A stretch of 33,927 nt of DNA from Trueperaceae bacterium (lineage in GTDB: Bacteria > Deinococcota > Deinococci > Deinococcales > Trueperaceae), in NCBI GenBank assembly GCA_035703635.1, contig DASSXV010000042.1, positions 1 through 33,927 of the forward strand, in the 5' to 3' direction. Position numbers and translations under genes: made by a program. Positions 784 to 30,069 of this stretch are shown here, one piece after another (position 1 is the stretch's first letter; every line of letters begins with the position of its first letter). Below the pieces are notes generated by a model that was not told the origin of the DNA, did not search any database, and worked only from the letters and a program-made list of their open reading frames with translations.

Positions 784-1413
784 ATGTTGTTGGGTCACGG
801 TTTCTCCGGGGGTTGGATTGAGGTCATCGCGGGTCCCATGTTCTCCGGTAAGAGCGAGGAGCTCATCCGGCGCGTTACGCGCGCGGTGATCGCCAAGCAG
901 AAGGTGCAGGTCTTCAAGCACGCCATAGATGATCGGTACGCCAAGTTGGCCGTTGCATCGCATGCCGGTCGGACGCTCGAGGCAGAGCTGGTGGCAAGCG
1001 CCGATGAGTTGCTTGCGCGCCTCAGCCTAGAGACGCAGGTGGTGGCCGTTGACGAGGCGCAGTTCCTCGACGCCGAAGTCGTGGCCGTAGTCGAACGGTT
1101 GGCTGACTCCGGCAGGCGCGTGATCGTGGCCGGCCTGGACATGGACTTCAGGGGCGAGCCGTTCGGCGCCATGCCACAACTCATCGCCCGGGCGGAGGTC
1201 GTCGAGAAGCTAACGGCCATCTGCCGTTGCGGGCAGGCGGCCACGCGCACGCAGCGCCTCATTCATGGCCGGCCAGCGCACTACGACGACCCAACCGTCT
1301 TGGTTGGCGCCGCCGAGAGTTACGAGCCGCGCTGCCGCTCATGCCACGTGGTGTTGAGGGGTCTACGCGAGGCGCCACTGTTCTTGGAGCAGGTGGCCGA
1401 GGTGCGTGGTTGA
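784..1413 (+). CDS. tdk: Thymidine kinase (type II)
   Basis: [12 protein letters not shown]-loop, [19 protein letters not shown], lasso/Zn motifs CxC and YEPRCRSC. Confidence 0.96.
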
Positions 1414-4028
1414 CGGAAGCTGAGCAGCTGAGCGGCGTGCGGCCACTCGAGGCGCAGCTGTGGGGGGAAGTGCGCTTTTCACACGCAGGCGTGGCCGTCG
1501 AGCCGCCTTCTCACAAGGCCGCCGCCTTGCTTGCTTACCTCGTCGTTGCGCCAGCCGCCGTTCGGCGCGAGGAGCTCGCCGCCCTGTTGTGGAGCCCTGA
1601 TCGACTAGCGAACGTGCGTCAGGCGCTTTACACGCTGAGGTCGTTGCCTGGCGCGGATGAGTGGTTGGATGACGGCGTGAAACGCGTTAGCGTGCGCGCC
1701 GTTTCGGACGTCGGCCGATTGCGGGAGGCGGACGGGAACGACCTGGCCGCGCTCGTCGACGGGCTTGGCGGGACCGAACTGCTGGCAGGCTTCGGGGCGC
1801 GGCTCCCGAGCGAGTACCTCGAGTGGCTGACCCGTGAGCGTGCGAGCAGCGCCGACCTGGTGCGAAGTGCGTTAGCTGAACGCGCCGCCCAGCTCGAGGG
1901 TCAAGGGGAGGCGAAGCGGGCGCTCGAACTCACGGTGCGGGCTCAGGCTCTTGACCCGTACGACGAGGAGCTGCAGCGCTCCGCCATGCGCCTGGCCTAC
2001 GTCTCCGGCGCAGCTGACGTGGCGCTCGCGAGCTTCGCCGCGTTCACGGAGCGCCTGGCGGTCGACCTTGGTGCGGAGCCGAGCAGCGAGACGGCTGAGT
2101 TGGCGCGCCGCATCGAACGCCGTGAACCGCTCGGCCTGCGGGCGGCGCTGGCGGCCCTCAGCGACCTTGACCGCCGCACCTTGCAGGCATTGGCCCTGGC
2201 GCGCGGCGCGTTACGCGTGGACGGCCTCGCTAGCGTGCTGGAGCGGCCAGCATTCGAGTTGGTCGCCGACCTCGCCCGCTTGGCGGAGCGCGGGCTAATA
2301 GATGAGCACCTAGGGCTGAGTCCTGAGCAGCGCGCTGCCATCCTCCCTGGGCTCCCTGCGCCACTGAGGCGCCTCCTTAGCGAACGCATCGTGGCGGTGC
2401 TACGCAACGACGTAACCGCCGACCAGGGCGCATTAGCGCGCCACCTCCTGGCTGCTGGTGAGCGAGCAGAGGCAGCGAGCCGTGCGCTTGCAGGCGCTAG
2501 GGCAGAAGTGGAGCGTTCGCACGTCGAGGCCGCGGACGAACTCGCGTACCTCACGCTGTGGGCGGCGCCCTCAGAACCGACGCTGCGGCTCGAGGCCGTC
2601 CTGTTGCTCGAGCGCAACGCGGCCAGCCGCATGAACCTCGATGCTCAAGCTGACTTCCTCGATGAGGCAGAGCGGCTGGCGTGGGAGTTGCAGAGCGACG
2701 CCGCGCTCGCCGAGTGCAACGTCAGGCGCACCCGCTTCCTGCTCGCCCGCGGCCGCGTCGGCGAGGCGCTCGAGGAGGCACTCAAGGCGTTGGAGACGGC
2801 GCTGCGTATCACGGATGACAGCCTGGTCGCGCGCGCAAGGAACGCGGTCGGGGCGGCACACTTCTACGCAGGCGACCTTGACGGCGCGGCCGCCTCCTTC
2901 GCAGCCAGCCTTGCTGGCGCTGACGACGTCGAGCGCTACCGTGCGCACAACAACCTCGGCAGCATCAACGCCATGCGCGGGAGGCTAGACGAGTCGTACC
3001 ACCACTTCGACGAGGCCCTGACGCTGGCAAGGCGCCACTCGCAACACCTCGACGTAAGCGCGACCCTCAACAATCTCGCCGCCAGCGCCGAGCGCTTCGG
3101 CGATTACGCGCGGGCGGAGCGCCACTTCAAGGAGGGCATCACCGTCGCGCGGCGCGCCAATGCGCTTAGGCGCGAGGCGGAGATGCTCATCAACCTGGCC
3201 GTCGTCTACGGCCGCCAAGGTCAGCTTGGGCCCGCGTGGAACACCACGGCGGAGGTTGAGGTCCTGGCGCACGAGCTGGCCGATCGGCGCCTGAGCATGC
3301 GCGTGTCCGAGCAACGCAGCGAGATCAAGCGCCTCTGCGGCGACCTGCCCGGCGCGGTCGACGCCCTGAACGCCGCACTAGACCTCGCGACCTCGTTGGG
3401 TGACGAACGCAAGCGCCTCGCGCTCAGGGCGCAACTATTGGCGGCCGAGGCGCGCCTCGACCCGCGTGTGGTCCCACGACTTGAGCTGGCGATCCTAGAT
3501 CTGGAAGCCGCCCGACTCACCGACGTGGCGCCGTGGCTGAGGCTCGAGCTGGCGCTGTGCACCAGCGATGTCGCGGTCGCGCAGGCGCAACTGGCCGTGG
3601 TCGACGAGGGGCAGCTCAAGAGCGCGCACCAGCGCCTAGTGCGCGAGGTCGTCTGCATGCGCCTCGCACTGCTCCTTGGGGCCGATGCAGCCGTCAAGCG
3701 CGCGGGGTTAGAGGCGCGCGAACGACTCGCGCACGCTGGCCTCATTCGCGCCAGCCACGCTCACACCACCGGAGCGCCCCAAGTTGAGCGTGCCGAGGTG
3801 ATGATCGTCGAAGGCCCGAAGGCCCGCTATCTCGCTTGGCTACTCGAGCCGGACGCCCCACCGAGCTGGCCGCCCCCGCCTCCGCCGCCAGCCGTAGTGG
3901 CTGAGCTGCGGGAACAGGGAGCCGGCCTCCCTCGCGCCATGGCAGCCTCGCTGCTCGAACTACCTGCCGCCTGGCTGGACCCTCAGGGATGGCTCGGGCA
4001 TGGGTCCGGCTCTTTGACACCTCGTTGA
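1410..4028 (+). CDS. SARP/BTAD-type transcriptional regulator with C-terminal TPR array
   Basis: N-terminal wHTH-like segment ([29 protein letters not shown]), BTAD motifs ([31 protein letters not shown]), TPR repeats (NNLGSIN, NNLAAS, INLAVVY). TTG start at 1410 overlaps the tdk stop; exact start uncertain. Confidence 0.85.
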
Positions 4029-4046
4029 CACCAGACCAACTAGTCT
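4014..4046 (+). promoter_or_regulatory. Direct-repeat promoter copy 1: TTGACA-N5-TTGACA-N10-TAGTCT
   Basis: TTGACACC at 4014 and 4025 (11-bp period), then TAGTCT at 4041-4046, upstream of the 4145-12847 gene block. Confidence 0.65.
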
Positions 4047-4144
4047 TCTCACAACCGCAATGGGGGCCCAGCCGCAACGCGGCCGGGCCGCGCAGTGAGT
4101 AGGGGCGGCAATGCCACCGGCAGTAGCGAGGCGAGAGGTGCAGC

Positions 4145-4342
4145 GTGACCGACAGCAGTCATAGGTTCTTACTCAAGGTCTGGCGTGAACCGGGAGCGCA
4201 GCCGAACTGGCACGCGACCCTGCGCGACGTCAGCGATGGTTCGGTCCACGAGTTCAGAGCGACAGAGGCCCTACTCGATTACTTGGTGACCCTAGACGAC
4301 GTCGGGGCCACGGACGAGCACATCGAAGAGGAGAGGCGATGA
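4145..4342 (+). CDS. Small hypothetical protein (FLLKVWRE...WHATL...F...EALLDYL)
   Basis: 65 aa, GAGAGG SD before GTG, stop overlaps the next ATG (ATGA). Resembles small proteins I recall next to BTAD regulators. Confidence 0.7.
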   Translation: MTDSSHRFLLKVWREPGAQPNWHATLRDVSDGSVHEFRATEALLDYLVTLDDVGATDEHIEEERR

Positions 4343-4959
4343 AGAAGAAGTTCGCGTTCGGATGCTTGATCGTTGCCATAGCCGTCCTCGTGGTGGGCGG
4401 CGGCGCCGCCTACGTCTACGTCATCAGGCCGTTGACCAACACCGTCAAGGCCGGCATGGAGCTCCCTAAGCTCGCCGAACTCGACCGCCAGGTGAGCAAC
4501 AAGCGCGCCTTCTCCGCCCCAGAAGGGGGCTTGCTGCAGGCAAGCGACGTTGAGCGTTACCTGCGGGTGACAGGCAGCGTCATGACCGGCCTCGAGGGCA
4601 AGGCGAGCGAGTTGGAGAAGAAGTACGCCCAACTCAAGGACGGCAACCCAGGTATCCGCCAGGTCATCAACGCCTACGCAGACATCATCCAACTAGTCGT
4701 GGCGGCCAAGGAGATGCAAGTGAAGGCCCTCAACGACGCGAACTTCTCTCTCGATGAGTACGCCTGGGTGCGCGGCGCAGTCCTGCAGGCCACTGGCCAC
4801 ACGCCCGCGCTCGTCAACCTCTCGGCGCTAGCGGCTGGCGAGGTGGAGGAGAGCACGGCGGCCAGCACTACCGGCGTGCCCGAAGCGAACGTGACCTTGG
4901 TAGCGCCTTACGCTGAGCGCGTCGGCGAGTACCTGCCGCTAGCGCTGTTCGGGCTATGA
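4339..4959 (+). CDS. Membrane-anchored hypothetical protein
   Basis: GAGAGG SD; basic N-terminus followed by one hydrophobic helix (FGCLIVAIAVLVVGGGAAYVYVI), helical remainder; overlaps both neighbours by 4 nt. Confidence 0.8.
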   Translation: MKKKFAFGCLIVAIAVLVVGGGAAYVYVIRPLTNTVKAGMELPKLAELDRQVSNKRAFSAPEGGLLQASDVERYLRVTGSVMTGLEGKASELEKKYAQLKDGNPGIRQVINAYADIIQLVVAAKEMQVKALNDANFSLDEYAWVRGAVLQATGHTPALVNLSALAAGEVEESTAASTTGVPEANVTLVAPYAERVGEYLPLALFGL

Positions 4960-7352
4960 GGCGCAGCTCAGGCCTGCGCTCCGTCCTCGTGGCGGGCGCC
5001 AGGCACCTGCTCACGTGCGTGCTTGCCATCGCCATTTCACTACCGCTGGCACCGAGTGCCGTGGCGCAGGGAGCACTGACCAGCGAGGCGGCCAAAGAAC
5101 TCGCGCGCCAGCGGAACATGCTCGAGGTGGCGTTAGCTGGCGTCGACCGCAGCAGGCTCGACCTAGACGACCAGCGCCTGGACGCCGCGTTCATGGACGC
5201 ACAGGAACTCGAGGAGCTGCTGGCCACCGATTACCGCTTCGAGCTCTACCGCGGCCTCCTGCGGGGCGCAGAAGCCACGTTCATCTCTCGCGCAGGCAAC
5301 GCGCTCGACCTCTCCTTCTTGTTGGCGACGCTCCTTGAGGACGCCGGTTACGACGCCCGCATCGCCCTCGGTTCCCTGACGGAGGCAGATGGCGAGCGGT
5401 TGTTGGAGCGCGTGCTCGAGCCTGTCGTAGTCCGTGACGGTTCGTCCCCCGACCAGGTCAGCGCACTAGCGCGGGCTGCCGACGTGAGCTTGGACGAGTT
5501 GGAGAAGTACGGTCGCGCACTGGCTGCAGTGGAACTCGAGGAGACGGCACCTTACCTCGAGGCAGAAGCGGCCAGCGCCGCGCTGCTGGACGCGTTGGCT
5601 GCGGCCGGCGTTGCCCTCGTCGCGGACGATCACGCCGCGCTCCTCGCAGAAGCCATGGAGTATGCCTGGGTGGAGTACCGCTTGGGAGACGCGGCCTGGG
5701 AAGCCGTTCACCCGGCGTTCGGCGCCCTGCCAGCGCCGGACGTCGTGGCAGACGACCACATCGAGTCAGCCGTACCAGAGGGGCTCCAGCACCGCCTGCG
5801 GGTGGAGGTTGGCATCGAACGCAAGCGCGGGAACGAGTTCTTCGAGGAGCAGATCATGACGCCGTGGGAGCGGCCCGTCGCGAACATGTTCGGCATCAAC
5901 CTCGCGGTGACCAACTCGCCACTCGATCAGCCGGCGGACGCCACGCTCGAGGACCTGGGCACGACCTTGAGGGAAACCGCCTTCTTCGTCCCGCTCCTCA
6001 ACGGAGTGCTCGCGCCAGGGGCGCTAGCCTTCGACACCATGGGCAACCTGCTCTCGCCTGCGGACGCGGCCAGCGCAATGGCTGGCGTGTTCCAGACGGC
6101 AGCGAGCAAGATGGGCCAGGCGACCGGACTCCTTGGCGCCCTCGGCACCGACGCCCCGGCAGACATGGAGCCGTTCGCGTTGACTGCCCAGTTCGTCGAC
6201 GTCATACACGTGGCGCCGGGTGGTGCCGAGAACCGGCAACGCCGCTACGTCTTCGACCGCCGTGGAGGCGCAGCGCGCGTGCAAGGCGGTGCGGAGTTGC
6301 TCGACGAGAGCGTATTGCTGAACGGCATACTGAGCAGCATGGAGTTCATGGTGACGGGGGCGTCGTTGCCGACCGAGTACCTCGTTGACGACTCGGTGCA
6401 GCAGGGCCTGCGCTACTTGGACGCCATCGAGAGGCTGGCACGGAACCCGGACCTCGGTCTGATCGACGGCGTCGGCGGCCTGCAAGGCCGCGACCAGCTC
6501 TTGCTGATGGCGCTCTTCGAGGGGGTCGCGCCCGTAGCGGGCGGCGCCGGTTACCGCGCGGCGCCGACGGTCGTCTCGATCAGGCAGGCGCTATCGATCG
6601 GCGAGTCGGTTGGCGGCGAGTTGGGCGTCGACATCTTGCATAGCAGCCGGCGTTTCCTCACGACGGGCCCGTCAGGGGTCGTCAGCGACGCTAACCGCGC
6701 CGTTCTGGCTGGCGCGTGGGACACGATGGTCGAGCGCCTGTACGTCGAGCGTTTCGCTCAAGGGGTCGACAGCGCCTTCTCTAGCTTCGCGGACGGCTCG
6801 GGGCCGCTGACGGTGCTGACCGATGTGGCTGAACTACGAGGGTCTGGTGCTCCGGATGCGGCATTGCCAGCCTTGCAACGCGACCTCGCCGCAGGCAACG
6901 TGGTCGTGTACGCTAGCGACCACGCTGCTAGCGGCACGGCCTTCAGTTGGTGGCGCGTCGATCCCGCTACGGGGACAACGCTCGGGATAGGTAGCCGCGG
7001 CCACGGGAACGCTGCGGTCGAGTACCTCGTCCCTTGGCAGATCAGCCTTACCGTCGCAGGGGTCCTGGCCGTTCCAGGTGCGATGATCTGTGCTAGCCAA
7101 AGCGGCGACGCCCTGATCATCTGTCTGTGCGACATGGTTACTGGGGTGGTCATCTTCGGGAGCATCGGCATCGGCCTAGGCGCGGCGCTGGCTGGTGCCT
7201 CCGCCGCCGTGCAAGTTGGCGTGTCGGTCGGGATGTTCATAGGTTCGGACATCGGCCTAGGCTCCGCGATGCTCACGCCCCTTGGCGGCCCGTGCACGTG
7301 GGCGGACCGACTGATGAGCTTCCAGCCACGGACTACGTGCATTCTAGGGTGA
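4956..7352 (+). CDS. Secreted transglutaminase-fold protein (catalytic triad apparently lost) with hydrophobic C-terminal tail
   Basis: Sec-type signal (...LPLAPSAVA|QG); YRGLLRGAEATF..GNALDLSFLLATLLEDAGYDAR, YAWVEY and WEAVHP resemble the TGase-like core; Gly/Ala-rich hydrophobic last ~110 aa. Confidence 0.7.
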   Translation: MRRSSGLRSVLVAGARHLLTCVLAIAISLPLAPSAVAQGALTSEAAKELARQRNMLEVALAGVDRSRLDLDDQRLDAAFMDAQELEELLATDYRFELYRGLLRGAEATFISRAGNALDLSFLLATLLEDAGYDARIALGSLTEADGERLLERVLEPVVVRDGSSPDQVSALARAADVSLDELEKYGRALAAVELEETAPYLEAEAASAALLDALAAAGVALVADDHAALLAEAMEYAWVEYRLGDAAWEAVHPAFGALPAPDVVADDHIESAVPEGLQHRLRVEVGIERKRGNEFFEEQIMTPWERPVANMFGINLAVTNSPLDQPADATLEDLGTTLRETAFFVPLLNGVLAPGALAFDTMGNLLSPADAASAMAGVFQTAASKMGQATGLLGALGTDAPADMEPFALTAQFVDVIHVAPGGAENRQRRYVFDRRGGAARVQGGAELLDESVLLNGILSSMEFMVTGASLPTEYLVDDSVQQGLRYLDAIERLARNPDLGLIDGVGGLQGRDQLLLMALFEGVAPVAGGAGYRAAPTVVSIRQALSIGESVGGELGVDILHSSRRFLTTGPSGVVSDANRAVLAGAWDTMVERLYVERFAQGVDSAFSSFADGSGPLTVLTDVAELRGSGAPDAALPALQRDLAAGNVVVYASDHAASGTAFSWWRVDPATGTTLGIGSRGHGNAAVEYLVPWQISLTVAGVLAVPGAMICASQSGDALIICLCDMVTGVVIFGSIGIGLGAALAGASAAVQVGVSVGMFIGSDIGLGSAMLTPLGGPCTWADRLMSFQPRTTCILG

Positions 7353-7399
7353 GTCGCAGCAGTATCGGCGCCGTCAGCTAGCGGCGCGAGGAGGAGTAG

Positions 7400-10300
7400 A
7401 TGAGCGTCAGTCGACCGGCTCGTATAGAGCGCTCGCCCTGGGGGCGAACCTCGCGCAAGCGCATGGCCATGCTTGGGGTGCTCTTCAGCCTGTGCGCCGC
7501 GATCACGGGCAGCGCGCTGGCGCAGCAGTGCACGTATGAATCGGAGCCGAACGACACGCCGGCCACCGCGACGAGGTTGACGGGCGCAGGGCCGAACATG
7601 ATCGCGCCAGCTAGTTACAACGAGGTTGGCGCACTCTGCCTCACAGGCACGGTAGGTAGTAGCGACCAAGACGCGTTCAGGTGGGACGTAACCGCTGAGG
7701 ACGCTAGGCACCGCTGGACGCTCGCCGTTGAGGGGCCGCGCAACAGCGTTACTACGGTCGAGCTGTTCAGGGTGACTTTCGCAGATAACGGCGTGGACGT
7801 CACGCAGGTCGAGAAGTACCCTAGCGTGACCACGCAGAACGGCAGCGCGGCCAAGTCGCGCGAGTTCCTCATCCAGCCGGGCAGCTACTACCTCGGCGTG
7901 GCGACGAGCGGGTCTGCCGGGGAGTTCGTCGCCAACCTAGCGCCGGTAACTACGTTGCGCTACGGCGCAGACGATGCCCGCTACGACGAGGGGGGCCCCC
8001 GGAAGTACGTGGGGGCGTTCGGGTGGTTCGGGCCGGTGGTCGAAGAGTTGGCGGTTAGCGTCAGCATCGACGAGGAGGCCGCAAGGCGCGTGTGGGGCCT
8101 TGAACTGTGGGCAGCGTACGGCTCCACACCGAAGCTGGAACTGGAAGGCCCAGCTGGCGTTGTCAGTCAGGGTGCTGTAGACGCTAGCGGCCGCGTGCGC
8201 TTCACCGGCCTCGGGTTGCCGGTAGGCGATTACACGGTCAAGGTGGTTGGTGACAGCGGCATGGTGCGCTTGCGCCTTGAGTCGCAAGGAGTGCGCGGCG
8301 ACGGGATCGCTGTAGAGCCGAACGACGACTGGGCGCGGGCGACCGTCTTCCCTCTCGGCAGTGAGATGCGCGCCACCTTACAGAACCGCGATTACTACCG
8401 CACCGAAGTGACAGCGGCCGACGCTGGCTACTACGACCTGACCTTCGAGTCGGCTGCTGACCTCACCTACTCGCTTAATGACGACGCCGGTGGAGCGCTC
8501 ATGTACTCGCGCCCAGGCGTGACCCACGCCAGCCTGTACTTGCGCGCAGGCAGCTATCAGCTGCTGGTAGAGGGGACTAACGGCGTCAGCTACAACATGG
8601 CGCTACGGCCAGGCACCGCCTTAGCGGGTGGAGACGTGGAGCCGAACGATTACCCCAGGTCAGCCAGCCCGCTGCCGGAGAACGGTCAGGTCCGCGGCAG
8701 GTTCGTTGGCCCGGAAGCGGACGTTTACTCCGTTCAGGTGGTAGGCGCGGCGCAGCGCTACCGCATTCAGTTGGTTGGCGCCAACATCTCGAGCCTGACC
8801 GAGTTGGCCGTGTCGGGAGGGAGGCTGGCGCAGGCACGCGGTTCAGGGCGGCTGCGCCTCGACGACCTCGTGCTCATGCCTGGCCTGCACTACTTCGAGG
8901 TGCGCGGCAGTGCTGGCGAGTACGCCCTCAGGGCCATCTCGTTGGGTGACGCAGAAGTCGGCGCAGTCGTGGCGGCGCCAGCCAGCGACGCAGTCCTCAC
9001 GCCAGCTGCGGCAGGCACGCCGGATGACGGGGCGGCGGCGGCGGTGGAGGCGCTTGAGGCCGCCGTGCTCGAGCCCGGCCCACCCCCGCCTGCAGGCACA
9101 CTAGAGTTGGAGCCGAACGATGACCCCAGTCGGGCGATGCGTGTCGTACCTGGTCACGTTTACGTAGGTCGCCTGACGGGCGACAGCGACGACTACTACC
9201 GTTTCTTCCTGGCCGATGACCAGTACGTGATCATCGAGGTCGTAGCGCCTAGCGGCAGCCCGCCCATCGACGTGAACCTGGCGGGTAGCGGCTGGGCGGA
9301 GTTCCCGCCCGACGCGGGGGAGGCCACCACCCGCATCGAACGCCTCTTCCTCGCTGGTGATCACACCTTCTACCTCAACGCACCGAAGCTCGAGACAGAC
9401 GGCTACTACCAGCTGAGGATGACCTTGGCTGGCAGCCTCATGCCGCCAGTAGACGCAGAGCCGAACGATAGCCGCGCCACGGCAGCTACGCTGCCAGCCG
9501 AGCTGCGCTGGCAGGGCAACGTCGGTGAGTACAGCGACGACGACTACTACCGCCTACCAGTCTTCGAGCAAGCGACGGCCATCGAGGTGACGTTGAGCGG
9601 GGCCAGCAGCCGGCTGCGGGTCGAACTGCGCACTGAGGCGGCCAACATCGCCCTCGCCGAATCCGGCGACGCCCAGAGCGGCACCCCGTGGCGCGGCACG
9701 CTGCCCGCCGGAGAGCAGGTCTTCCTGCGCTTATCCGGCAAGTCGCCCTACAGCGCCGAGGTGAGTTTCGGCGCGACACCGGACCCGGCCCAGTTGTTGC
9801 CGCCCCGGGACTCTAGCTCGCTGGCGTTAACGCTCACTTCCCCGACAGACGCCCTAGCCGCCTTCTGGCACGAGGGTCAGGCACTGACCATGACGGCGCA
9901 CATCGAGAACCGCAGTAGTGAACCGCAGCAGCTGCAGCTGGAGGCAGCGAGTAGCCACGCCAGCGTGCGGTTCGATTTCGAGCCGCAACTGACGCTGGCT
10001 GCGGGCGAGAGCCGCGCTGTCCCGGTCGAGGTACTCGTGCCAAGCGACATGCGTGACGACCTGCCCCTACGCGTCGAAGTCGTCGCGGCTACTGCTAGCG
10101 GCGCCAACGTGGCGGCGGTCGAGGCGACGTTCGCCTGCGAAGCGGCGCCAGCCTCAGCGTTCGCCTACTGGCCCCTGCCCCCCAGCCTGCTCGGCAAGTT
10201 CGACGTGCTAGGCACTGGCTTCGGTGCCGCGATTCACGGTGAGTCGAGCTACGTGCGGCGCGACCTAGCGCTCATCGACGGGCGCGTGGGCCCGGCTTCC

Positions 10301-12847
10301 GGCGGCTACCTCGGCCTGGAGCATTCGCCTACTTACCGTCTCGCGGGAGACGCCCCCGTCACCCTCATCGGCAGCACTCTCGACCCGCGCTCGGACGCTA
10401 ACCGCGCCGACTTCGTCAAGGTTTTCCGCATCGAGACGTCACTTGACGGGCACACCTTCACCGTTGCCTACCAAGGTGTTCTGAAGGCCGCAGGCGCTGA
10501 ACAGGCTTTCGTGTTCGACCAACCTGTCAAAGCGCGCTACGCACGGCTGGTGTCCGTCAGTACCCAAGGCGCCACGAACAACGCCTACCTAGGTGAGTGG
10601 AAGCTCATCGCGGCAGAAGGCGACCTGTTCGGCGAGCTCGACCTCGCCGACGCCCGGAACGGCGGCCACGTCGCGTGGAGCGAACCGTACCTGGCCAGCT
10701 CCGGCCGTGGCATGCTCACCCCTGACGACGGGCAAGGCACCAAGCTGGACCTGCGTGAGATCGGAGCCTTCACGTTCGTCGTCGGCTTCCACGACAACCG
10801 TGCCGCCCAGTTCACGCGCATCGAGTGGCAAGAGGAGGCAGCGGCGCAGAGCGAACCCCAAACCATGTTCGCTAGCGTCACGGTCGAGGTGAGCCAAACA
10901 GGCGGTGCCGGCCCGTGGGCGCCGCTCGCCGACTGGCAACTTCAACGGGGTGCCACCGGTCTGGCGACCTTGCAGTTCGACGCTCCGGTGTGGGCGCGCT
11001 ACTTGCGCTTCACGAGCGCTCCCGTGGAGGGTGCGGACGGCAAACTTGGACGCTACTATTACGCCCCGGACGTCGTGCGAGTGATCGAGCGCGCCACGAA
11101 CGACGAGTACCGCTCAGCGCTCGCCGAGTGGGGTGCCAGCTCGCGGGCAGCTGTCTACGAGTACCTCAACCCGCCGACCCTGGCGCAGAACGTCGCAGAC
11201 GCCGGCAACGACAGCCGCGCGAACGCTTCGCCGGCACCGGTCGGCGCGCAACTGACGGGCACTGTGCAGGTAGCCAGCGACGAGGATTGGTACCAGTTGA
11301 CCATCCCAGGTGGGCAGAACTACCTTGAGCTCACCCTCGGTGGCGATCCGGCCATCGCTTACCGCTACGAACTCGTTAGCGCCGACGGCCTGCCGCTAGG
11401 CTTCGATGAGCGCCACGACGGGGACGACGTCGTTCTCTCCCTCTACGCGGAGCCAGGCGACTACTACCTCCACCTGTGGGAGCCCAAGCGCACCGTGGTC
11501 TTCAGTTGGGACACGAGCGGCTCCGTGAGCCAGTACCAGGCCATCACTTACAACTCGTTGGCGAGTTTCGCCACCGGTCTTGACGGGGAGCGCGAGGCCG
11601 CTCAGCTACTTGCCTTCGACGACCCGACTCCTAAGTGGTTGTTGCCCTTGTGGTCGACCGACCCGCAACGTGTGCAACGCGCCATCGTGGAGTTCGACCG
11701 CCACGCGGACTCTAGCTCGTCTGAAACGGCGCTCCTGACCGCCACCATGGCGTTGGCCGCTCGCGATGGCACCCGTGCCATCTTGCTCATGACCGACGCA
11801 GAGTCGACCAGTAGCCAGTTCACGCCCGCCCTGTGGCGCGCGTTCGAGGAGGTGCGGCCGCGCGTCTTCACCTTCGAGATCGCCTCCGGCGGCAACGATT
11901 ACGCCCAAGACCTAATGCAGGACTGGGCTGGCGTCAACGCCGGGGCGTACGCCCTCGCGGCCGGGGTAGGCGACTTCGACGCTGGCTTCTCGCGCGCGTC
12001 GTGCCTCCTGCGGCGCCCGAAGCAGTACACGCTCGCGCTTGACGTCCGTAGCCAGCCCCTCCCAGGGCCGGGCAGCCTCGCGGTGCGCGCGGCGCCCGGC
12101 GCTGCGCAGGCAGCTGTCGAGGTCATCTTCGACGCGAGCGGCTCGATGGGTCGCGAGTTGCCGAGTGGCGAGCAGCGGTTAACGGCCGCCAAGCGCGCGC
12201 TGACCGCGCTCGTCAGCGAGGTACTGCCAGAAGGCACCCCGTTCGCGCTGCGCGCGTTCGGGCACATCACCCCAACATCGTGCGAGTCGCGCCTCGACGT
12301 GCCGTTGGCGCCACTCGATCGCGCCAAGGCGCAGGCGGCCGTCGACGCGATTCAACCTAAGCTCTTGTCCCAGACGCCTCTCGCGGACTCGTTGCTTGCC
12401 GTTGGCAGCGACCTGTCCAAGGCCGGCGGCGCGCGCACGGTCATCCTGATAACTGACGGGGCGGAGTCGTGCGGCGGCGATCCGGCGGCGGCCGTGCGGG
12501 AGGCACGCAAGCAGGGGAGCCTGGACCTTGCCATCGTGTCGCTCGGGCTCGAGCCGCAAGCGTTGGCCGTGTTCGAGAAGCTCGCCGCCGACGTGGGCGC
12601 CAGCTACGTCGACGTTGGTTCGTACGAGGCGCTCGCCGAGGCGGTCGCGGAGGCGCTCAACCCGGCATACGAGGTGTATGACGCGACCAGTGGCGAGCTC
12701 GTGGCCCGCGGGCGCGTTGGCGGGGAAGCCATCGATCTGGAGATGGGGGTCTACAACGTGCGCGTCCTCGTGGCGCCGGTTGAGGAGTTCAGGGAAGTAC
12801 GCGTTCCGGGCGAGAAAGCCGTGACGCTGACGCTAAGCGGTCATTGA
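7400..12847 (+). CDS. Giant secreted multidomain protein: PPC-like EPND repeats, Ig-like domain, two discoidin-like domains, two VWA domains
   Basis: GAGGAG SD; signal peptide (GSALA|QQ); EPND motifs at 7544, 8315, 8639, 9110, 9458 and GND at 11204; FVFDQPVKARYARL and FDAPVWARYLRF; MIDAS motifs DTSGS (11510) and DASGS (12131) with LMTDA and LITDG. Confidence 0.85.
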   Translation: MSVSRPARIERSPWGRTSRKRMAMLGVLFSLCAAITGSALAQQCTYESEPNDTPATATRLTGAGPNMIAPASYNEVGALCLTGTVGSSDQDAFRWDVTAEDARHRWTLAVEGPRNSVTTVELFRVTFADNGVDVTQVEKYPSVTTQNGSAAKSREFLIQPGSYYLGVATSGSAGEFVANLAPVTTLRYGADDARYDEGGPRKYVGAFGWFGPVVEELAVSVSIDEEAARRVWGLELWAAYGSTPKLELEGPAGVVSQGAVDASGRVRFTGLGLPVGDYTVKVVGDSGMVRLRLESQGVRGDGIAVEPNDDWARATVFPLGSEMRATLQNRDYYRTEVTAADAGYYDLTFESAADLTYSLNDDAGGALMYSRPGVTHASLYLRAGSYQLLVEGTNGVSYNMALRPGTALAGGDVEPNDYPRSASPLPENGQVRGRFVGPEADVYSVQVVGAAQRYRIQLVGANISSLTELAVSGGRLAQARGSGRLRLDDLVLMPGLHYFEVRGSAGEYALRAISLGDAEVGAVVAAPASDAVLTPAAAGTPDDGAAAAVEALEAAVLEPGPPPPAGTLELEPNDDPSRAMRVVPGHVYVGRLTGDSDDYYRFFLADDQYVIIEVVAPSGSPPIDVNLAGSGWAEFPPDAGEATTRIERLFLAGDHTFYLNAPKLETDGYYQLRMTLAGSLMPPVDAEPNDSRATAATLPAELRWQGNVGEYSDDDYYRLPVFEQATAIEVTLSGASSRLRVELRTEAANIALAESGDAQSGTPWRGTLPAGEQVFLRLSGKSPYSAEVSFGATPDPAQLLPPRDSSSLALTLTSPTDALAAFWHEGQALTMTAHIENRSSEPQQLQLEAASSHASVRFDFEPQLTLAAGESRAVPVEVLVPSDMRDDLPLRVEVVAATASGANVAAVEATFACEAAPASAFAYWPLPPSLLGKFDVLGTGFGAAIHGESSYVRRDLALIDGRVGPASGGYLGLEHSPTYRLAGDAPVTLIGSTLDPRSDANRADFVKVFRIETSLDGHTFTVAYQGVLKAAGAEQAFVFDQPVKARYARLVSVSTQGATNNAYLGEWKLIAAEGDLFGELDLADARNGGHVAWSEPYLASSGRGMLTPDDGQGTKLDLREIGAFTFVVGFHDNRAAQFTRIEWQEEAAAQSEPQTMFASVTVEVSQTGGAGPWAPLADWQLQRGATGLATLQFDAPVWARYLRFTSAPVEGADGKLGRYYYAPDVVRVIERATNDEYRSALAEWGASSRAAVYEYLNPPTLAQNVADAGNDSRANASPAPVGAQLTGTVQVASDEDWYQLTIPGGQNYLELTLGGDPAIAYRYELVSADGLPLGFDERHDGDDVVLSLYAEPGDYYLHLWEPKRTVVFSWDTSGSVSQYQAITYNSLASFATGLDGEREAAQLLAFDDPTPKWLLPLWSTDPQRVQRAIVEFDRHADSSSSETALLTATMALAARDGTRAILLMTDAESTSSQFTPALWRAFEEVRPRVFTFEIASGGNDYAQDLMQDWAGVNAGAYALAAGVGDFDAGFSRASCLLRRPKQYTLALDVRSQPLPGPGSLAVRAAPGAAQAAVEVIFDASGSMGRELPSGEQRLTAAKRALTALVSEVLPEGTPFALRAFGHITPTSCESRLDVPLAPLDRAKAQAAVDAIQPKLLSQTPLADSLLAVGSDLSKAGGARTVILITDGAESCGGDPAAAVREARKQGSLDLAIVSLGLEPQALAVFEKLAADVGASYVDVGSYEALAEAVAEALNPAYEVYDATSGELVARGRVGGEAIDLEMGVYNVRVLVAPVEEFREVRVPGEKAVTLTLSGH

Positions 12848-12876
12848 CGGGGCGTTGACGCCGCTCCGTCTATTCT
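12844..12876 (+). promoter_or_regulatory. Direct-repeat promoter copy 2: TTGACG-N5-TTGACG-N10-TATTCT
   Basis: TTGACG at 12844 and 12855 (11-bp period), TATTCT at 12871-12876; same geometry as copy 1. Confidence 0.65.
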
Positions 12877-12924
12877 GCCGCCAACCTGAACCGTTCCAAC
12901 GCGGAACCTAGAGAGGACTGGAGT

Positions 12925-13950
12925 ATGCCCAAGATCTACCTCGGCGAGGCCATTCGGCTCGTCATGCAGACCCTGCCGATCGTGTGGGTGAGGCTCGGCA
13001 GCTACCTCGTGCTCGGCCTGGGGCTCGGCGTCTACGCCGGAGTCTGCTTCGGGCTCGGGTGGTTGTTCGCCAAGCTGTGGGCGCCCCTCGGGTTCATCAT
13101 CTTCCTTGCCGCGTTCGGCGGGGCGTTCTGGATCGTCAACCTGGCGGGCCGCTACTGGTTCCACTTGCTGAGGGCCGCGCATACGGCGGTGTTGACTGAG
13201 TTCATCACCACTGGCAAGGGGCCAGCTACGGGCCAACTCGAGTACGGCAAACAACAGGTCCTGAGCCGCTTTTCGGACACCTCCATCTTGTTCGGCGTCG
13301 GCCTGCTGGTGGACGGCATCGTGAAGTTCGTGGTGCGTACATTCACGCGCATCGCCTCGATCCTGCCGCTGCCAGGCGTCGACTCCCTCGGCAAGTTCCT
13401 CGAGCGCGTTGCCACCATGAGCACGACCTACGTGGATGAAGCCATCCTGTCGCGCGCTTACGCCCAGCGCGAGCAGAACGTGTGGGCAGTGGCCAAGGAC
13501 GGCGTCGTGCTTTACGCCCAGGCCTGGAAGCCCATCTTGGCCAACGCGGTGGTGCTGGCGCTCCTAAGCTACGCGGAGTTCGTCATCTTCTTGATCATCC
13601 TTGGGCTGCCTGCGCTCGCCATCGGCGCCGCGCTGCCGAGCCTCGGACCCGCGCTAGGCATCGGCGTGGTCATCGGCGCCTGGATGCTCAAGCTGGCGTT
13701 GGCCGACGCGATCTCGCTGGCTGCGACCCTCCTCGCCTTCCACCGCTCGACGGCTGGCATGACGCCGAACGCCGAGTGGGTCGCCAAGCTGGACGGCGCT
13801 AGCGACAAGTTCAGGGAGCTCGGCCGCAAAGCGGCAGCGTACGTTGCCCCGCAGGCGGCGCCCGCGGCGGCGGGCGCGACGGGGGCGGGCGCCATGGAAC
13901 CAGTCGCGTTGCCAGGCGCAGTTGGCGAGGAGCCGTTAGGGACGGCCTAA
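12925..13950 (+). CDS. Polytopic membrane protein of unknown function
   Basis: GAGGA/GGAG SD; about 5-6 hydrophobic segments; conserved-looking TYVDEAILS motif; low-complexity Ala/Gly/Pro tail. Confidence 0.82.
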   Translation: MPKIYLGEAIRLVMQTLPIVWVRLGSYLVLGLGLGVYAGVCFGLGWLFAKLWAPLGFIIFLAAFGGAFWIVNLAGRYWFHLLRAAHTAVLTEFITTGKGPATGQLEYGKQQVLSRFSDTSILFGVGLLVDGIVKFVVRTFTRIASILPLPGVDSLGKFLERVATMSTTYVDEAILSRAYAQREQNVWAVAKDGVVLYAQAWKPILANAVVLALLSYAEFVIFLIILGLPALAIGAALPSLGPALGIGVVIGAWMLKLALADAISLAATLLAFHRSTAGMTPNAEWVAKLDGASDKFRELGRKAAAYVAPQAAPAAAGATGAGAMEPVALPGAVGEEPLGTA

Positions 13951-14039
13951 CGCGCAGTTCGCTTGCGCGCCTCGACTGGCAGAGGGGTAGGCTGGGGCCG
14001 CGGCTCTTCGCCGCATATCTTCGAGCTGAGGAGAGCCGC

Positions 14040-15215
14040 ATGCCTACCATCGCAGAACAGGCCAAGGCGCTGCACGAACGCACCGTGGCGGTCCGCCGCG
14101 ACCTTCACCGTCACCCGGAGGTCGCTTTCGAGGAGCACCGCACGATGGCGGTCATCGTCGCGCGTCTCCGTGAGTTGGGGCTGGAGCCCCGCGAGGGCGT
14201 TGGCGGCACTGGAGTCGTGGCCGTGTTCGACACGGGGAGGCCCGGCCCCACGGTGTTGGCGCGCGCCGACATGGACGCGCTGCCAGTCGCCGAGGAGAAG
14301 TCGGTCGCATACCGCTCTACGGTGCGGGGGAAGATGCACGCCTGCGGTCACGACGGGCACGTTGCCGTGCTCCTCAGCGTCGCGGAGATCATTGTCGCGC
14401 GCGCGGCGCAACTCGCTGGCCGCGTCGCGTTCGTGTTCCAACCCGCTGAGGAGATCGTTAGGGGCGCGCAGGCCATGCTCGCCGACGGGGCCCTTGACGG
14501 CATTGCCGTCGACCAGGTGATCGGCCTGCACCTCTCTAGCAACGACCCGCTCGGCACCGTGGCGGTGCGTGAGGGGCCAGCGATGGCCGCCACCGACTCG
14601 TTCAAGCTGGTGGTCAAGGGCCGCGGGGGCCACGCCGCTTACCCGCACGCCTGCATAGACCCGATCGTTGCCAGCTCGCAGCTCGTCATGGGGCTCCAGA
14701 CGCTGGTGAGTAGGGAGACCGACCCCGTCGACCAGTCGGTCATTAGCATCACGAGCTTTCATGGCGGCACCGCTTACAACATCATCCCGGAAGAGGTTGA
14801 GCTGAAGGGCACGCTCCGCACCTTCGATGCCGACACGCGGGCAAGGTTGCGGACGCGCATCTTGGAGGTTGCGGAAGGCACGGCCAAGGTCATGCGCTGC
14901 ACGCTGCAGTCTGAGTGGTTCGAGGGCACTCCGGCGGTCGTCAACGATGCATATTCCGTCGCACGGTTCCGAGAAGTGGCGGCGCGCGTCGTCGGCGAGG
15001 ATGGCGTAACGCTACAGGCGCCGATCATGGGTGGCGACGACATGGCGTTGTGGTTGGCTCAGGCGCGCGGCTGCTACTTCTTCGTCGGTACCAACTCGGG
15101 CCCAGACACCGCGTGGGCGCACCACCACTCACGCTTTGACATCGATGAACGCGGCCTCGAGATCGCAGTCAACCTGTTGGCCTCCGGCGTGTCCGACCTG
15201 ATGAGCGGCGACTGA
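14040..15215 (+). CDS. M20D-family amidohydrolase (metallopeptidase)
   Basis: RRDLHRHPEVAFEE, RADMDALP, MHACGHDGH, FQPAEE, GRGGHAA, HHHSRFDIDE; GAGGAG SD. Confidence 0.93.
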   Translation: MPTIAEQAKALHERTVAVRRDLHRHPEVAFEEHRTMAVIVARLRELGLEPREGVGGTGVVAVFDTGRPGPTVLARADMDALPVAEEKSVAYRSTVRGKMHACGHDGHVAVLLSVAEIIVARAAQLAGRVAFVFQPAEEIVRGAQAMLADGALDGIAVDQVIGLHLSSNDPLGTVAVREGPAMAATDSFKLVVKGRGGHAAYPHACIDPIVASSQLVMGLQTLVSRETDPVDQSVISITSFHGGTAYNIIPEEVELKGTLRTFDADTRARLRTRILEVAEGTAKVMRCTLQSEWFEGTPAVVNDAYSVARFREVAARVVGEDGVTLQAPIMGGDDMALWLAQARGCYFFVGTNSGPDTAWAHHHSRFDIDERGLEIAVNLLASGVSDLMSGD

Positions 15216-15235
15216 CGACCGGCCGCAGAAGGACG

Positions 15236-15270
15236 AAAAGGGGGCGCCTCGGCAGACGAGGCGCCCCCTT
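15236..15270 (-). terminator. Intrinsic terminator between convergent genes (possibly bidirectional)
   Basis: 14-bp perfect stem AAGGGGGCGCCTCG / CGAGGCGCCCCCTT, 5-nt loop, T-run on the minus strand. Confidence 0.85.
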
Positions 15271-15284
15271 GCTTGTGCGGAGGG

Positions 15285-15920
15285 TTAGAACTTGGCGCGT
15301 AGAGCCGCCACGACCTGGCTGACGGCGGTGTTCGCTGCCTCTGCGAACAGCGGCCCGACGGTCGGGTCGTTGTACGCCACGGTGCCTGCGAGGGGCACGT
15401 TGTTGACGTTGATGTTGGGGCTGCTTGCTTCGCCGGAGCCCTTCATGGAAACGACGACCACGCCAGTGATGATGTCGGTGGCGCGCACGTCAACCTCGAT
15501 CTGGGCCTTGGTTTGGCCGAGCGTCACGCCGAAGAGGCTGCCGCCAGGGCGCGCCACTGTGGCGCGGGTGACGGTGCCAGTCACGACGTAGCCAGCGCCT
15601 GCCGCCTTGGCGAGGTCGACTGGGTCGAGCGACTCCAGGCCCTGCTTCTCCATGATGGTGAGGAGCTCGCTGCGCTCGACGACCACGTAGCAGCCTGACT
15701 CCTTGAGCAAGGTGATGAGGCGCGCGGTGGCGGCGTCTTCGACGCCAACGACACTAACGCCGCCTTGGCTCGAGGTGTTCTGGAAGTCGACGACGGCGAC
15801 GGTCGGGATGGGGTCCGACACGCAGGCCGTGGGTCCGGCCGCGACCTCGGTCGTTGGCGCACAGGCGCCGAGGGCCACTAGTGTCGTCAGGAGCAGGGCT
15901 AGTAGTGGTCTACGCTGCAT
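15285..15920 (-). CDS. CsgG/HfaB-family lipoprotein
   Basis: Lipobox LGA|C; VAVVDF.N, VVVERSEL..IMEKQ, GAGYVVTGTVT, VDVRATDIITG.VV, typical of the CsgG/TolB-N-like fold; GAGGAG SD. Confidence 0.82.
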   Translation of the reverse strand: MQRRPLLALLLTTLVALGACAPTTEVAAGPTACVSDPIPTVAVVDFQNTSSQGGVSVVGVEDAATARLITLLKESGCYVVVERSELLTIMEKQGLESLDPVDLAKAAGAGYVVTGTVTRATVARPGGSLFGVTLGQTKAQIEVDVRATDIITGVVVVSMKGSGEASSPNINVNNVPLAGTVAYNDPTVGPLFAEAANTAVSQVVAALRAKF

Positions 15921-15982
15921 ACTTTGGTTCTCCTCTTCGCGACGGAGTTCGCCGCCAAAACCCTGGATTGAACAACTCAGAC

Positions 15983-16014
15983 AGGCTAGCAGAACGACGT
16001 CAAAGCGCCATCAA
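15983..16014 (-). promoter_or_regulatory. Direct-repeat promoter copy 3: TTGATG-N5-TTGACG-N9-TAGCCT
   Basis: Minus strand TTGATG (16014-16009) and TTGACG (16003-15998), 11-bp period, then TAGCCT (15988-15983), upstream of the CsgG-like gene. Confidence 0.55.
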
Positions 16015-16058
16015 TTCCAGAAGCGCCGCGGAACCACTTGCGTGCACGCTACCCAGCT

Positions 16059-17372
16059 TCAGGGCGTCAGGCGCTGGGCGTCTCGTGGGAAAGCGCGGGC
16101 GAAGCGGATGTTGTGTATGCCCAATAGCAACGCCGTCAGCCGCTCCGCGCCGATCGCGAAGCCGCCATGCGGAGGCATGCCGTGCTTGAAGACCTCGATG
16201 TAGTCAGCGAACGCCGCCTCGTCCATGTTGCGCTTGCGCAACTCCTGCACGAGCACCTCAGGCCGGTGAACGCGCTGTCCTCCAGAGGTGATCTCGACCC
16301 CGCGGAAGATGAGGTCGAGGCCTCGCGTCAGGCCGTTGTCGAGCGGGTACGTATAGAACGGGCGCGCCGCCTGCGGGTAGTTCGTGACGAACACGAAGTC
16401 GGAGCCGTGCTCCTCCTTGGCCCAGCGGCCGATCAAGCGCTCGGCTTCCGGGTCGAGGTCCTTACCGCCCGAGGTGTGGCCGTAGCGTTCACTGACGAGT
16501 TCACGCGCGGCCAGCAGCGGTATGCGCGGGAACTTCACCGTGCGGTCCGGCATCTCTGCGCCCAACGTCGCCAATTCTGGGGCGCAGCGCTCCTCCACGC
16601 CCGCCAGCATGGACTTGAGGAGAGCCTCCTCCAAGTCCATCACTTCATCCTCGTTGGAGATGAAGCCGAACTCGACGTCGAGGGACAGGTACTCGGAGAG
16701 GTGACGGTGGGTGTGGCTCTTCTCGGCGCGGTAGACGGGCGCCGTCTCGTACACGCGCTCGAACACGCCGACCATGATCTGCTTGTAGAGCTGCGGTGAT
16801 TGTGCGAGGTAGGCGCGGCGGCCGTAGTAGTCGACCTCGAAGAGGTTAGCGCCCCCCTCGGCCCCTGCCGAAACGAGCTTGGGCGTGAAGATCTCGGTGA
16901 AGTCATGCGCGTCGAGGTACGCACGGAAGCCTCGCACTAGCTCGGCCTCGACCTTGAGTACGGCGCGGGTCTTGGGGCTGCGTACCGTCACGTGGCGGTA
17001 GGCAAGCAGCGTCTCAGGGTTGGCGGTCCATTCTTCCTTGGCCAACTCGACTGGTGGCGCCTGCGTCGCCTCGCTGATGACCTCGAGGGCGGAGCCCTGC
17101 ACCTCGAAGCCGCCTGGCGCCTTCTTGTGCGCCACTACCTTGCCGGCAACGCGGACGCTGCTCTCATGTAGCGGCAGGGCCGTGTCTTCGAAGACGACTT
17201 GCGCCACGCCGCTGCGGTCGCGGAGGAGCAAGAAACCGATGCCGCCGAGGTCGCGGCGGTTGAGAACCCAGCCCTGCAGCGTTACCTCTGCGCCGACGTG
17301 GTTGCCTAGGTCGCTTACCAGTACGCGCGCGGCTGGCTCTGACTCGTGCCCGCCCCCTGTGTTGCTCGCCAT
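16059..17372 (-). CDS. aspS: Archaeal-type non-discriminating aspartate--tRNA(Asp/Asn) ligase
   Basis: 437 aa with no GAD insert; RDLGG, KAPGG (Pro typical of ND enzymes), GAEGGANLF, YLAQSPQLYKQ, EITSGGQR, GMPPHGGFAIGAERL; GGAGG SD. Confidence 0.93.
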   Translation of the reverse strand: MASNTGGGHESEPAARVLVSDLGNHVGAEVTLQGWVLNRRDLGGIGFLLLRDRSGVAQVVFEDTALPLHESSVRVAGKVVAHKKAPGGFEVQGSALEVISEATQAPPVELAKEEWTANPETLLAYRHVTVRSPKTRAVLKVEAELVRGFRAYLDAHDFTEIFTPKLVSAGAEGGANLFEVDYYGRRAYLAQSPQLYKQIMVGVFERVYETAPVYRAEKSHTHRHLSEYLSLDVEFGFISNEDEVMDLEEALLKSMLAGVEERCAPELATLGAEMPDRTVKFPRIPLLAARELVSERYGHTSGGKDLDPEAERLIGRWAKEEHGSDFVFVTNYPQAARPFYTYPLDNGLTRGLDLIFRGVEITSGGQRVHRPEVLVQELRKRNMDEAAFADYIEVFKHGMPPHGGFAIGAERLTALLLGIHNIRFARAFPRDAQRLTP

Positions 17373-17404
17373 GGCCGTGCCTCCAGTTACCCGTTCAACA
17401 ATCG

Positions 17405-17440
17405 CGAAAGCCCCCGAGGAAGTGTGGTCCTCGGGGGCTT
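17405..17440 (-). terminator. Attenuator (3:4) hairpin in the aspS leader
   Basis: 13-bp perfect stem AAGCCCCCGAGGA / TCCTCGGGGGCTT, 7-nt loop, short U-tract, between the leader ORF and aspS. Confidence 0.75.
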
Positions 17441-17461
17441 CGATGACTATGAAGTACAGCG

Positions 17462-17518
17462 CTACGCCCCGAGCAGCCTCGAAGTGAGATTATCGTCTCG
17501 GCGGGAGTGCGTAGCCAT
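17462..17518 (-). CDS. Putative aspS leader peptide MATHSRRDDNLTSRLLGA (18 aa)
   Basis: ATG 7 nt after a -10 box; GAC GAT AAT at codons 8-10; its 3' end is complementary to the terminator 5' arm. Confidence 0.72.
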   Translation of the reverse strand: MATHSRRDDNLTSRLLGA

Positions 17519-20102: not shown

Positions 20103-21095
20103 TTAGGTGGGTCGTTCGAGGAAGCGCTGCAGCGCGCGCATGGCGGCAAGCGCCCGCGGGAAGCCTACGAACATGGCGCTGTGGATGATGACCTCGCGCA
20201 CCTGGCGCTCGCTAGCGCCCGACCGCATTGCGCCACGGAAGTGCGTGGGGAGTTCGTTGACGCCGTCCGCCGCGGTAAGGAGGGCGACTGCTATGAGCTC
20301 GCGCGTGGCTAGGTCGAGGCCAGCTCTGGCGAAGACTTCGCCGTAGGCGACGCGCTCGACCAGTTCGCCGAGATCGGTGTCGGCCGCCGCCAACGCCGCG
20401 CTGATGCGGTCAGCTTGCGAACCCCAGATGGCCTCACGGGGGTCGCCTGCATGGTGCTCGACGAGGAAAGCGACGACGCCGGAGTGCACCGTAAGTTGCA
20501 CTTTGCTGCCGTTGGCGGCGTTGGATAGGCCCAAACCGCTGCCCAGGGGTAGTGGCGCGTCGCTAAGCGGGAACTGCACCCCCTGCGTCGTCACGCGGCA
20601 GCCTGGCTCGAGCGCGAGGAGGCTGACCGTCGTGCCTGGCGCCAACTCGCGCTCGAGAACCGCGGCGGGAGTAGCGACGTGTGCCTCGTGGTTCCCCGCG
20701 AACAGCGCTACTTCGCGCCCCTCCACCGCTAGGCGACCAGCGATGAGCAACGCGCCGAAGCTCTGGTCGAGGCGGCTTCCGAACGCACCGACTACGGTCG
20801 CGCGTGTAGCGCCCCGCGTCCACGCGGCCGCGAGAGCGAGCTCGAGGTCAAGCTCGTCCTTCGCCTGTGGGTGGCGCTCGACGGGCACCTGTTCGTAGCG
20901 TTCGAGGTCGCGGGCCTCGACGCTGTCTAGATCGCCGACGATCAGGTCAGGGGTGACGCCCAGGATGCGAGCGTGCGCCAACCCGCCATCTGCTGCGATG
21001 ACCAGGTCCTGTGCGGCCAGCAGCAGCGGCCAGAGTTGCGGTGCTGGCAGGGTGCCGCCAGCGAGTACAAGTGCCGTGCGTTGCGCGGGTGTCAT
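20103..21095 (-). CDS. thiN: Thiamine pyrophosphokinase fused to a C-terminal carboxymuconolactone-decarboxylase (CMD/AhpD-like) domain
   Basis: [35 protein letters not shown]; then [21 protein letters not shown]...H..GA...G...EVIIH...FVGFP. ATG overlaps the upstream stop. Confidence 0.85.
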
Positions 21096-29924: not shown

Positions 29925-30030
29925 TCGTGACCTCCTCGGTAATGGTTCTGCGAGGATAGCCCTAACCTGCGACAGGTAGCGCCGCACCGTGCGCCGGAGA
30001 CGAGCTAGTCGTGCCGCATACGTTGACCAC

Positions 30031-30059
30031 TTGACAAAAGACCGCGCCACCGCTAAAGT
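30031..30059 (+). promoter_or_regulatory. Sigma70-type promoter of the ABC exporter leader
   Basis: TTGACA-17 bp-TAAAGT. Confidence 0.8.
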
Positions 30060-30069
30060 CCCTGACGAT

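Follow-up and report, generated by a model that had tools for sequence, protein, structure and literature searches.

The 33,927-nt stretch of Trueperaceae DNA analysed here (contig DASSXV010000042.1; hereafter the window) carries three copies of a promoter-like element near a gene for a large BTAD-domain regulator, which raises the question of which protein reads these elements and to what effect. Re-reading of the sequence returned the three motif strings, spacers and strands exactly as the original prediction had given them. Box 1 (4014..4046, + strand) consists of TTGACA at 4014-4019 and TTGACA at 4025-4030, 11 bp apart, followed after a 10-nt spacer by TAGTCT at 4041-4046. Box 2 (12844..12876, +) has two copies of TTGACG, a 10-nt spacer and TATTCT, and Box 3 (15983..16014, -) combines TTGATG and TTGACG with a 9-nt spacer and TAGCCT. 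The -10 boxes lie 98 nt (Box 1), 48 nt (Box 2) and 62 nt (Box 3) before correctly oriented gene starts, in line with the 50-100 nt first estimated. The view that the boxes are not plain sigma-70 -35 elements was also borne out, as their spacers are 9-10 and 20-21 nt and a consensus scan of positions 1000-17500 for -35/-10 promoters with 16-18 nt between the hexamers returned 0 sites. Near the boxes the target strands yielded no terminator-like site, and the 5' leader at 4053-4150 folds no better than its shuffles (z 0.47). Assembled RNA contigs from 4 of 21 runs include pieces covering parts of the operons; such contigs cannot show starts, strand or level.

In the whole 2.9-Mb genome the pattern of the original prediction, ending in TAnnCT or TAnnnT, matches three times, and all three matches are inside the window. 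The same repeat set at 24 other periods (6-30) and followed by TAnnnT gave 0 matches in the genome, and six Markov-4 simulated genomes gave 0 as well. Because this pattern was fitted after the fact to the three copies, the real test lies in other genomes. Among the congeners we counted 55 matches in 17 of 17 genomes versus 1 for a reversed-pattern control, so that the genome scan proposed earlier as a check places the motif far above the controls (0-1 matches in control patterns or genomes). The sixth base of each half-site, left free in the pattern, was G or A in every one of the 110 half-sites counted by hand in the congeners. The consensus is TTGACG-N5-TTGACG-N9/10-TAnnnT; the three copies of the proposed TTGAYN pattern are thus present, but the true half-site is TTGACG(A), of which TTGATG in Box 3 is a one-base variant. 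When loci were fetched by protein similarity alone, TAnnnT lay 9 or 10 nt after 25 of 27 perfect repeats, many of these being orthologous positions. Each of the three boxes also recurs elsewhere: Box 1 in the same place in orthologous loci, Box 2 as similar copies in congeners G003, G008 and G010 and before a homologous target gene in another genus (locus L182), and Box 3 before the same CsgG-like gene in L047-L049, L048 having a perfect TTGACG pair.

With a matrix trained on 39 sites of other genomes, 7 sites were found in this genome and 0 in its reversal. The three boxes of the window rank first (scores 34.4, 31.4 and 26.2 for Boxes 1, 2 and 3), followed by four weaker sites. Three of the latter have one mismatch and precede proteins with signal-like N-termini: one without family at C33:37489 (+), one with a Chlamydia PMP-like repeat at C66:30284 (-) and a DUF3352 protein at C31:41151 (+). 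The fourth, a strong-scoring site at C40:1476 (-; locus L003), lies across from the 5' end of rplS, on the other strand, and points against that gene; no fitting gene was found within 300 nt. At the C33 site an ATG occurs 6 nt past the -10 box, a distance that resembles the leaderless Deinococcus mRNAs described in excerpts of PMC4007540. One congener (G016, L061:4847-4889) has extra upstream repeats in the box region, apparently a short duplication. Some loose-pattern matches of family f5 (L030, L032 and L033) were set aside and treated as ordinary promoters: their second halves read TTGACC and they stand before an inverted repeat that resembles CIRCE.

The regulator gene (1410..4028, +) encodes a SARP-type protein of about 872 aa with an OmpR-type winged helix, a BTAD, a helical linker and TPRs. 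Its start is probably the TTG at 1410, which overlaps the thymidine kinase stop; the frame is open from 1227. The BTAD scored 41.4 bits against a cut-off of 22.1 in a Pfam search of the genome, and hmmscan of the whole protein listed TPRs only, without the BTAD. The C-terminal repeats match TPR_12 (E 2e-14) and TPR_MalT (E 1e-12), and in the alignment about 200 residues separate the BTAD from the TPR region. A predicted model of the first 236 residues (pLDDT 96) matches AfsR (8k60/8hvr) and EmbR (2fez) with E 6e-10 to 5e-9 and nothing else at E<0.001, and a profile of 63 such SARP domains matches AfsR across 230 positions (E 3e-27). The protein thus has the N-terminal OmpR-type winged helix followed by a BTAD that defines SARPs, and its putative target promoters have direct repeats one helical turn apart that end near -10. 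As to AfsR-type SARP-NOD-TPR proteins, it shares the C-terminal TPRs but not the central P-loop NB-ARC/NOD domain: a pattern search found no Walker A motif ([GA]xxxxGK[ST]), and Pfam gave no NB-ARC or AAA match at E 0.01. From the absence of both we conclude that the regulator is, judged by its sequence, a SARP-TPR protein without AfsR's nucleotide-binding motif, that is, a SARP but not an AfsR-type NOD protein. Control would then come via the TPR region or a partner. Compared with the other aligned clades, the regulator has an HTH loop shortened by four residues. The gene follows that of thymidine kinase (724-1413) and is divergent from an HslV-like proteasome-subunit gene (102-785); this order is kept in one congener clade, and in another clade the regulator has a different setting.

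We then asked how closely box and regulator go together across genomes. The regulator has matches in 16 of 17 congeners, and for each of the 13 full-length orthologues, which share at least 42% identity, the box stands just after the gene (within about 100 nt), in one case with a mismatch. Among the remaining matches one is truncated where its contig stops, and two (G002 and G006) are distant, at 36-37%, with no box at the gene end; G001, whose assembly is 86% complete, has 4 boxes and no regulator match. Across 60 genomes sampled from the family, one unpublished genome of the original 61 being left out, two or more boxes occur in 19 of 22 genomes with a regulator match versus 3 of 38 without one, counts that are inflated by kin, and 2 of the 22 have none. 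Ahead of the regulator gene itself the matrix scan found no box, so that no autoregulation is seen.

Since the loci carry different hexamers, the identity of the reader can be tested by covariation. Helices with RQ go with TTGACG or GTCACG, RRVLS with CGAATG, RV with TCAATG-like boxes and SQ with GTCA or ATCA. We used 48 SARP-box pairs, a subset of the adjacent pairs chosen for a readable helix and a repeat of at least 5/6; several adjacent SARP loci have no clear repeat. Over these pairs box distance tracks recognition helix 3 (partial r 0.27, permutation p 0.002, with kin not independent), compared with a partial r of 0.06 for the rest of the winged helix. For the analysis of single positions the base register was set after seeing the data, 6 of the 48 pairs that did not fit were dropped and the rest collapsed to 28 distinct helices. 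The top of 78 residue-base cells, with no correction for phylogeny, pairs the position of AfsR residue 88 with base 3 (z 4.8; next 2.6). Where this residue is Q, base 3 is G or C in 27 of 32 half-sites, and where it is V or R, base 3 is A in 14 of 14. The regulator of the window has Q at the 88-equivalent and its box has G at base 3. In the solved structure AfsR T88 contacts the base-3-equivalent base pair (PMC10936776, excerpts), so the residue-to-base rule agrees with a solved contact. That the recognition helix determines the box, as in SARPs, is thus indicated by covariation alone, among kin that are not independent. The SARP fold and profile, the box at the 3' ends of the orthologues, the co-occurrence and the helix-box covariation all favour the original assignment of the box to the adjacent BTAD regulator.

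We therefore consider it very probable, as far as sequence analysis can tell, that all three motifs are promoters dependent on an activator and that their reader is the SARP-TPR protein of gene 1410-4028. By the model of AfsR, the TTGACG repeats, phased at 11 bp, would carry two adjacent SARP protomers between about -38 and -22, the sigma factor would sit on these protomers in place of a -35 box, and transcription would start 6-7 nt after TAnnnT; the start of Box 1 is then inferred to be near 4053. The SARP activation geometry claimed at the outset agrees with the afs box as excerpts of PMC10936776 describe it, two 11-bp repeats from -40 to -19 of which the upstream one overlaps a poor -35 element, TTCAGC, at -38 to -33, with T-38 and T-27 essential, T88 and R92 of AfsR making base contacts and sigma region 4 sitting on the SARP dimer. 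With TAnnnT set at -12 to -7, the TTGACG hexamers of a copy with a 9-nt spacer fall at -38 to -33 and at -27 to -22. The 9-nt copies therefore share the register of AfsR and the 10-nt copies are shifted by one, whereas AfsR has one fixed spacing register. The AfsR/afsS pair of Streptomyces coelicolor (8HVR, 8K60) likewise combines a SARP domain with C-terminal TPRs, 11-bp-phased repeats that overlap the -35 zone 20 nt from the -10 box, in a shared TTnA register (as far as the excerpts go), and a target promoter beside the regulator gene that drives a small gene. Unlike AfsR, the present system has a Deinococcota host, the hexamer TTGACG (the afs box consensus being CGTT(T/C)ATCGNN in excerpts of PMC10972967), no Walker A motif and the shorter HTH loop. 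By this analogy the activation mechanism is a known one, that of AfsR at afsS, including the small gene under the adjacent box.

The first gene after Box 1 encodes a protein of 65 aa (4145..4342, +) whose stop overlaps the next start. It was overlooked earlier, its ORF being below the 90-aa limit of the ORF list used. Between this gene and its counterpart in L009, 19 of 32 base differences fall at third positions. The protein belongs to an unnamed family with the consensus YLLRLWR..WRASL..G..F..L..L..FL, which a profile search extended to 2,537 clusters at 50% identity and, within Deinococcota, to 136 matches in 67 of 201 genomes. No family was found in Pfam (120 members searched) or NCBIfam (11 members), a sequence search of solved structures gave no match, and a profile comparison of the small family with the SARP domain found nothing. 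The predicted fold is three strands then a helix (pLDDT 82); the best hit of a fold search (COMMD, Z 4.6, rmsd 4.2 over 56 residues) was tied with unrelated chains, and the best Foldseek E was 0.06, so that no structural match rose above background; the candidate folds compared were COMM- and dsRBD-like. In the protein Atlas only unnamed clusters came up, below 0.9, with neighbours that name Chloroflexota and Pseudomonadota. Predicting the SARP domain and the small protein as a complex gave a score of 0.00, which was counted neither way. A plasmid query with the small protein returned two Deinococcus records only, neither of them D. deserti.

In 80 metagenome loci chosen by one conserved strand (74 distinct), a SARP gene lies within 800 nt upstream in 48 of the 55 loci with at least 500 nt upstream, all divergent, as counted with a SARP profile built partly from 26 of those loci. 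An independent Pfam check, taking the best five families, found a BTAD in at least 31 of 59 upstream ORFs and an OmpR winged helix in 3 more. Upstream of the small gene an 11-bp repeat is followed by TAnnnT at 9 nt in 32 of 68 loci and at 10 nt in 32 of 68, versus 0.6-0.8 in shuffles, and repeat periods other than 11 bp are near zero. The ORFs downstream of the small gene mostly start with signal-like sequences, by eye. For Deinococcota, 60 loci were hand-picked from the 136 matches, high scores being favoured and some known box loci included; a SARP gene is present within 1 kb upstream in 22 of them and anywhere in the locus in 27. Many other Deinococcota small genes lie within exported-protein operons, so that the SARP link looks looser than in the metagenomes. 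Such paralogues stand directly after exported-protein genes (L077, L078, L080, L082, L085, L086, L091, L093 and many of L187-L235), frequently lacking a nearby box or SARP and numbering up to six per genome. In seven loci (L196, L198, L206, L211, L223, L231 and L232) the small gene is flanked by the same pair of conserved genes, and four of these loci have a GTAACG/ATAACG/TAACGG-type box and contain no SARP gene. Some members of the family (P0009, P0012, P0013, P0020, P0038 and P0041) carry two domains in tandem, which hints that the small protein works as a dimer.

The 65-aa gene sits directly downstream of the regulator and under its box, as afsS does. AfsS was identified by internal repeats (bioRxiv 10.64898/2026.09.02.748808, excerpts), whereas the alignments of the small protein have none by eye and its model is a compact three-strand-helix fold; AfsS was compared by description only. 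By analogy, the most likely role of the small protein is that of a regulatory accessory or output factor, placed as AfsS is but differing in fold.

Direct repeats of 11 bp beside a -10 box are also the geometry of OmpR/PhoB-type response regulators, and another winged-helix protein, either one of these or another SARP, might be the main reader of the boxes. At least one box is present in 10 of the 38 genomes that lack a match to this regulator, and the genome studied here has at least five other SARP-domain genes. The recognition helices of the latter differ, however, and two of their loci that we inspected (C77 and C70) have no such promoter box nearby, whereas the box is fixed at the 3' end of this regulator gene and follows its helix; we regard a different main reader as distinctly unlikely. 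In Streptomyces PhoP binds the afs box and shares it with AfsR (PMC10972967, excerpts), so a second reader is possible. The C77 locus (L006) encodes a large regulator with a C-terminal SARP module, and the C70 locus (L007) a receiver-BTAD protein resembling D. deserti Deide_19260, which is a receiver-SARP protein and the only SARP among the matches listed in the excerpted supplementary listing of that species. The small protein itself could be the sequence-specific reader, alone or with the SARP, given that its gene follows a repeat and -10 box in about half of the loci and that some Deinococcota loci have a box and no SARP gene nearby. Against this, the box does not vary with the sequence of the small protein (partial r -0.15 over the 48 pairs), the same SYLLRLWRE strand occurs with at least six different hexamers, and no small gene follows Box 2 or Box 3, which leaves this role highly improbable.

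It is also conceivable that the SARP protein binds but represses, the first TTGACA/G acting as a long-spacer -35 element blocked by the bound dimer, as the repeats are near the sigma-70 -35 consensus and differ in this from the poor TTCAGC of AfsR. We think this very unlikely: the 20-21 and 9-10 nt spacers and the empty consensus scan do not suit sigma-70, other members use CGAATG, GTCACG or TCAATG, unlike a -35 box, in the same geometry, and AfsR activates from this position (PMC10936776, excerpts). A last alternative would take the motif as chance or a by-product of TGA stops at gene ends. The overlap between Box 1 and the stop codon, pointed out in the original prediction, is real, the TGA (4026-4028) of ORF 1227-4028 lying in repeat 2; repeat 1 of Box 2 contains the stop of ORF 7400-12847, which had not been reported, and many orthologous loci have such overlaps. 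Over 20 orthologous loci, however, the regulator stop lies in repeat 1 at 11, in repeat 2 at 3 and 11-91 nt upstream at 6, which makes the overlap incidental; congener G008 has an identical repeat pair although the stop is 22 nt upstream, and in Box 3 and at six orthologous loci both repeats are intact and free of any stop. Together with control counts of 0-1, this conservation rules out a chance or stop-codon origin, to which we give a negligible probability.

After the 65-aa gene, Box 1 is followed by genes for a 206-aa protein with a hydrophobic N-terminal anchor or signal and no family match (4339..4959, +), a 798-aa signal-bearing protein (4956..7352, +) and an 1815-aa secreted-type protein with PPC-like, F5/8 type C and vWA domains (7400..12847, +). 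The 798-aa protein has no Pfam match and is a candidate transglutaminase-like protein by its language-model neighbours in the Atlas (score 0.97, Transglut_core on 15-28% of members), which is a lead only; the place where we would expect the transglutaminase catalytic cysteine seems to hold another residue. Box 2 precedes a gene for a 341-aa membrane-type protein without family match (12925..13950, +), and Box 3 a gene for a CsgG-family lipoprotein of 211 aa (15285..15920, -; Pfam CsgG E 6e-19) with a lipobox-like LGAC. By a crude rule, 29 of 34 genes after boxes encode a hydrophobic N-terminus or lipobox, compared with 33% of 1,236 ORFs of this genome; for 6 further boxes the same rule gave no ORF. 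These data suggest a regulon of three local and three or four distant promoters, mostly before exported or membrane proteins, and such targets in turn suggest a cell-surface or matrix programme, unlike the antibiotic genes of the AfsR system. Elsewhere in the window, 20103-21215 encodes a thiamin pyrophosphokinase fused to a carboxymuconolactone decarboxylase-family domain, and a UvrD-helicase/PD-(D/E)XK gene and a second PD-(D/E)XK gene lie in tandem at 23836-30134 (-), an AddAB-like pair.

Among other known systems, EmbR of Mycobacterium tuberculosis (2FEZ, 2FF4) has the same SARP fold over the whole domain as the predicted model (TM about 0.7), but ends in an FHA domain where the present regulator ends in TPRs. 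Promoters of PafBC, a WYL-domain protein, have the consensus hexamer-N10-TAnnnT. The likeness to PafBC lies in an activator just upstream of a bare TAnnnT that displaces sigma region 4; unlike the PafBC site, the present one consists of a direct repeat and adjoins a SARP gene. Sigma adaptation by PafBC is named in the excerpts of PMC10936776. According to excerpts of PMC4007540, 94% of start sites in D. deserti are preceded by a -10-like motif and a -35 element common to them was not found, a pattern that fits a bare TAnnnT needing an activator.

The observation is thus real and well supported. A 2024 review gives SARPs as exclusive to actinobacteria in the part excerpted (PMC10972967), and a search of the open-licence PMC and bioRxiv literature found no mention of the motif or of the small-protein family. 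The boxes and their regulator amount to a compact, testable predicted SARP regulon of a Deinococcota genome, whose box is defined, whose regulator lacks an ATPase motif and whose targets look like surface proteins. They also open a first way into an unannotated small-protein family of more than 2,500 clusters; this partner family and the residue-base rule most deserve to be followed up. More tentatively, and with somewhat less than even confidence, we propose that the 65-aa protein marks undescribed and widespread non-actinobacterial SARP modules made of a regulator, a helix-coded box, a dedicated accessory and exported proteins, in which the small protein would be a working part of the switch, as co-activator, feedback inhibitor or downstream regulator, and the pairing of residue 88 with base 3 would predict the boxes of thousands of regulators.
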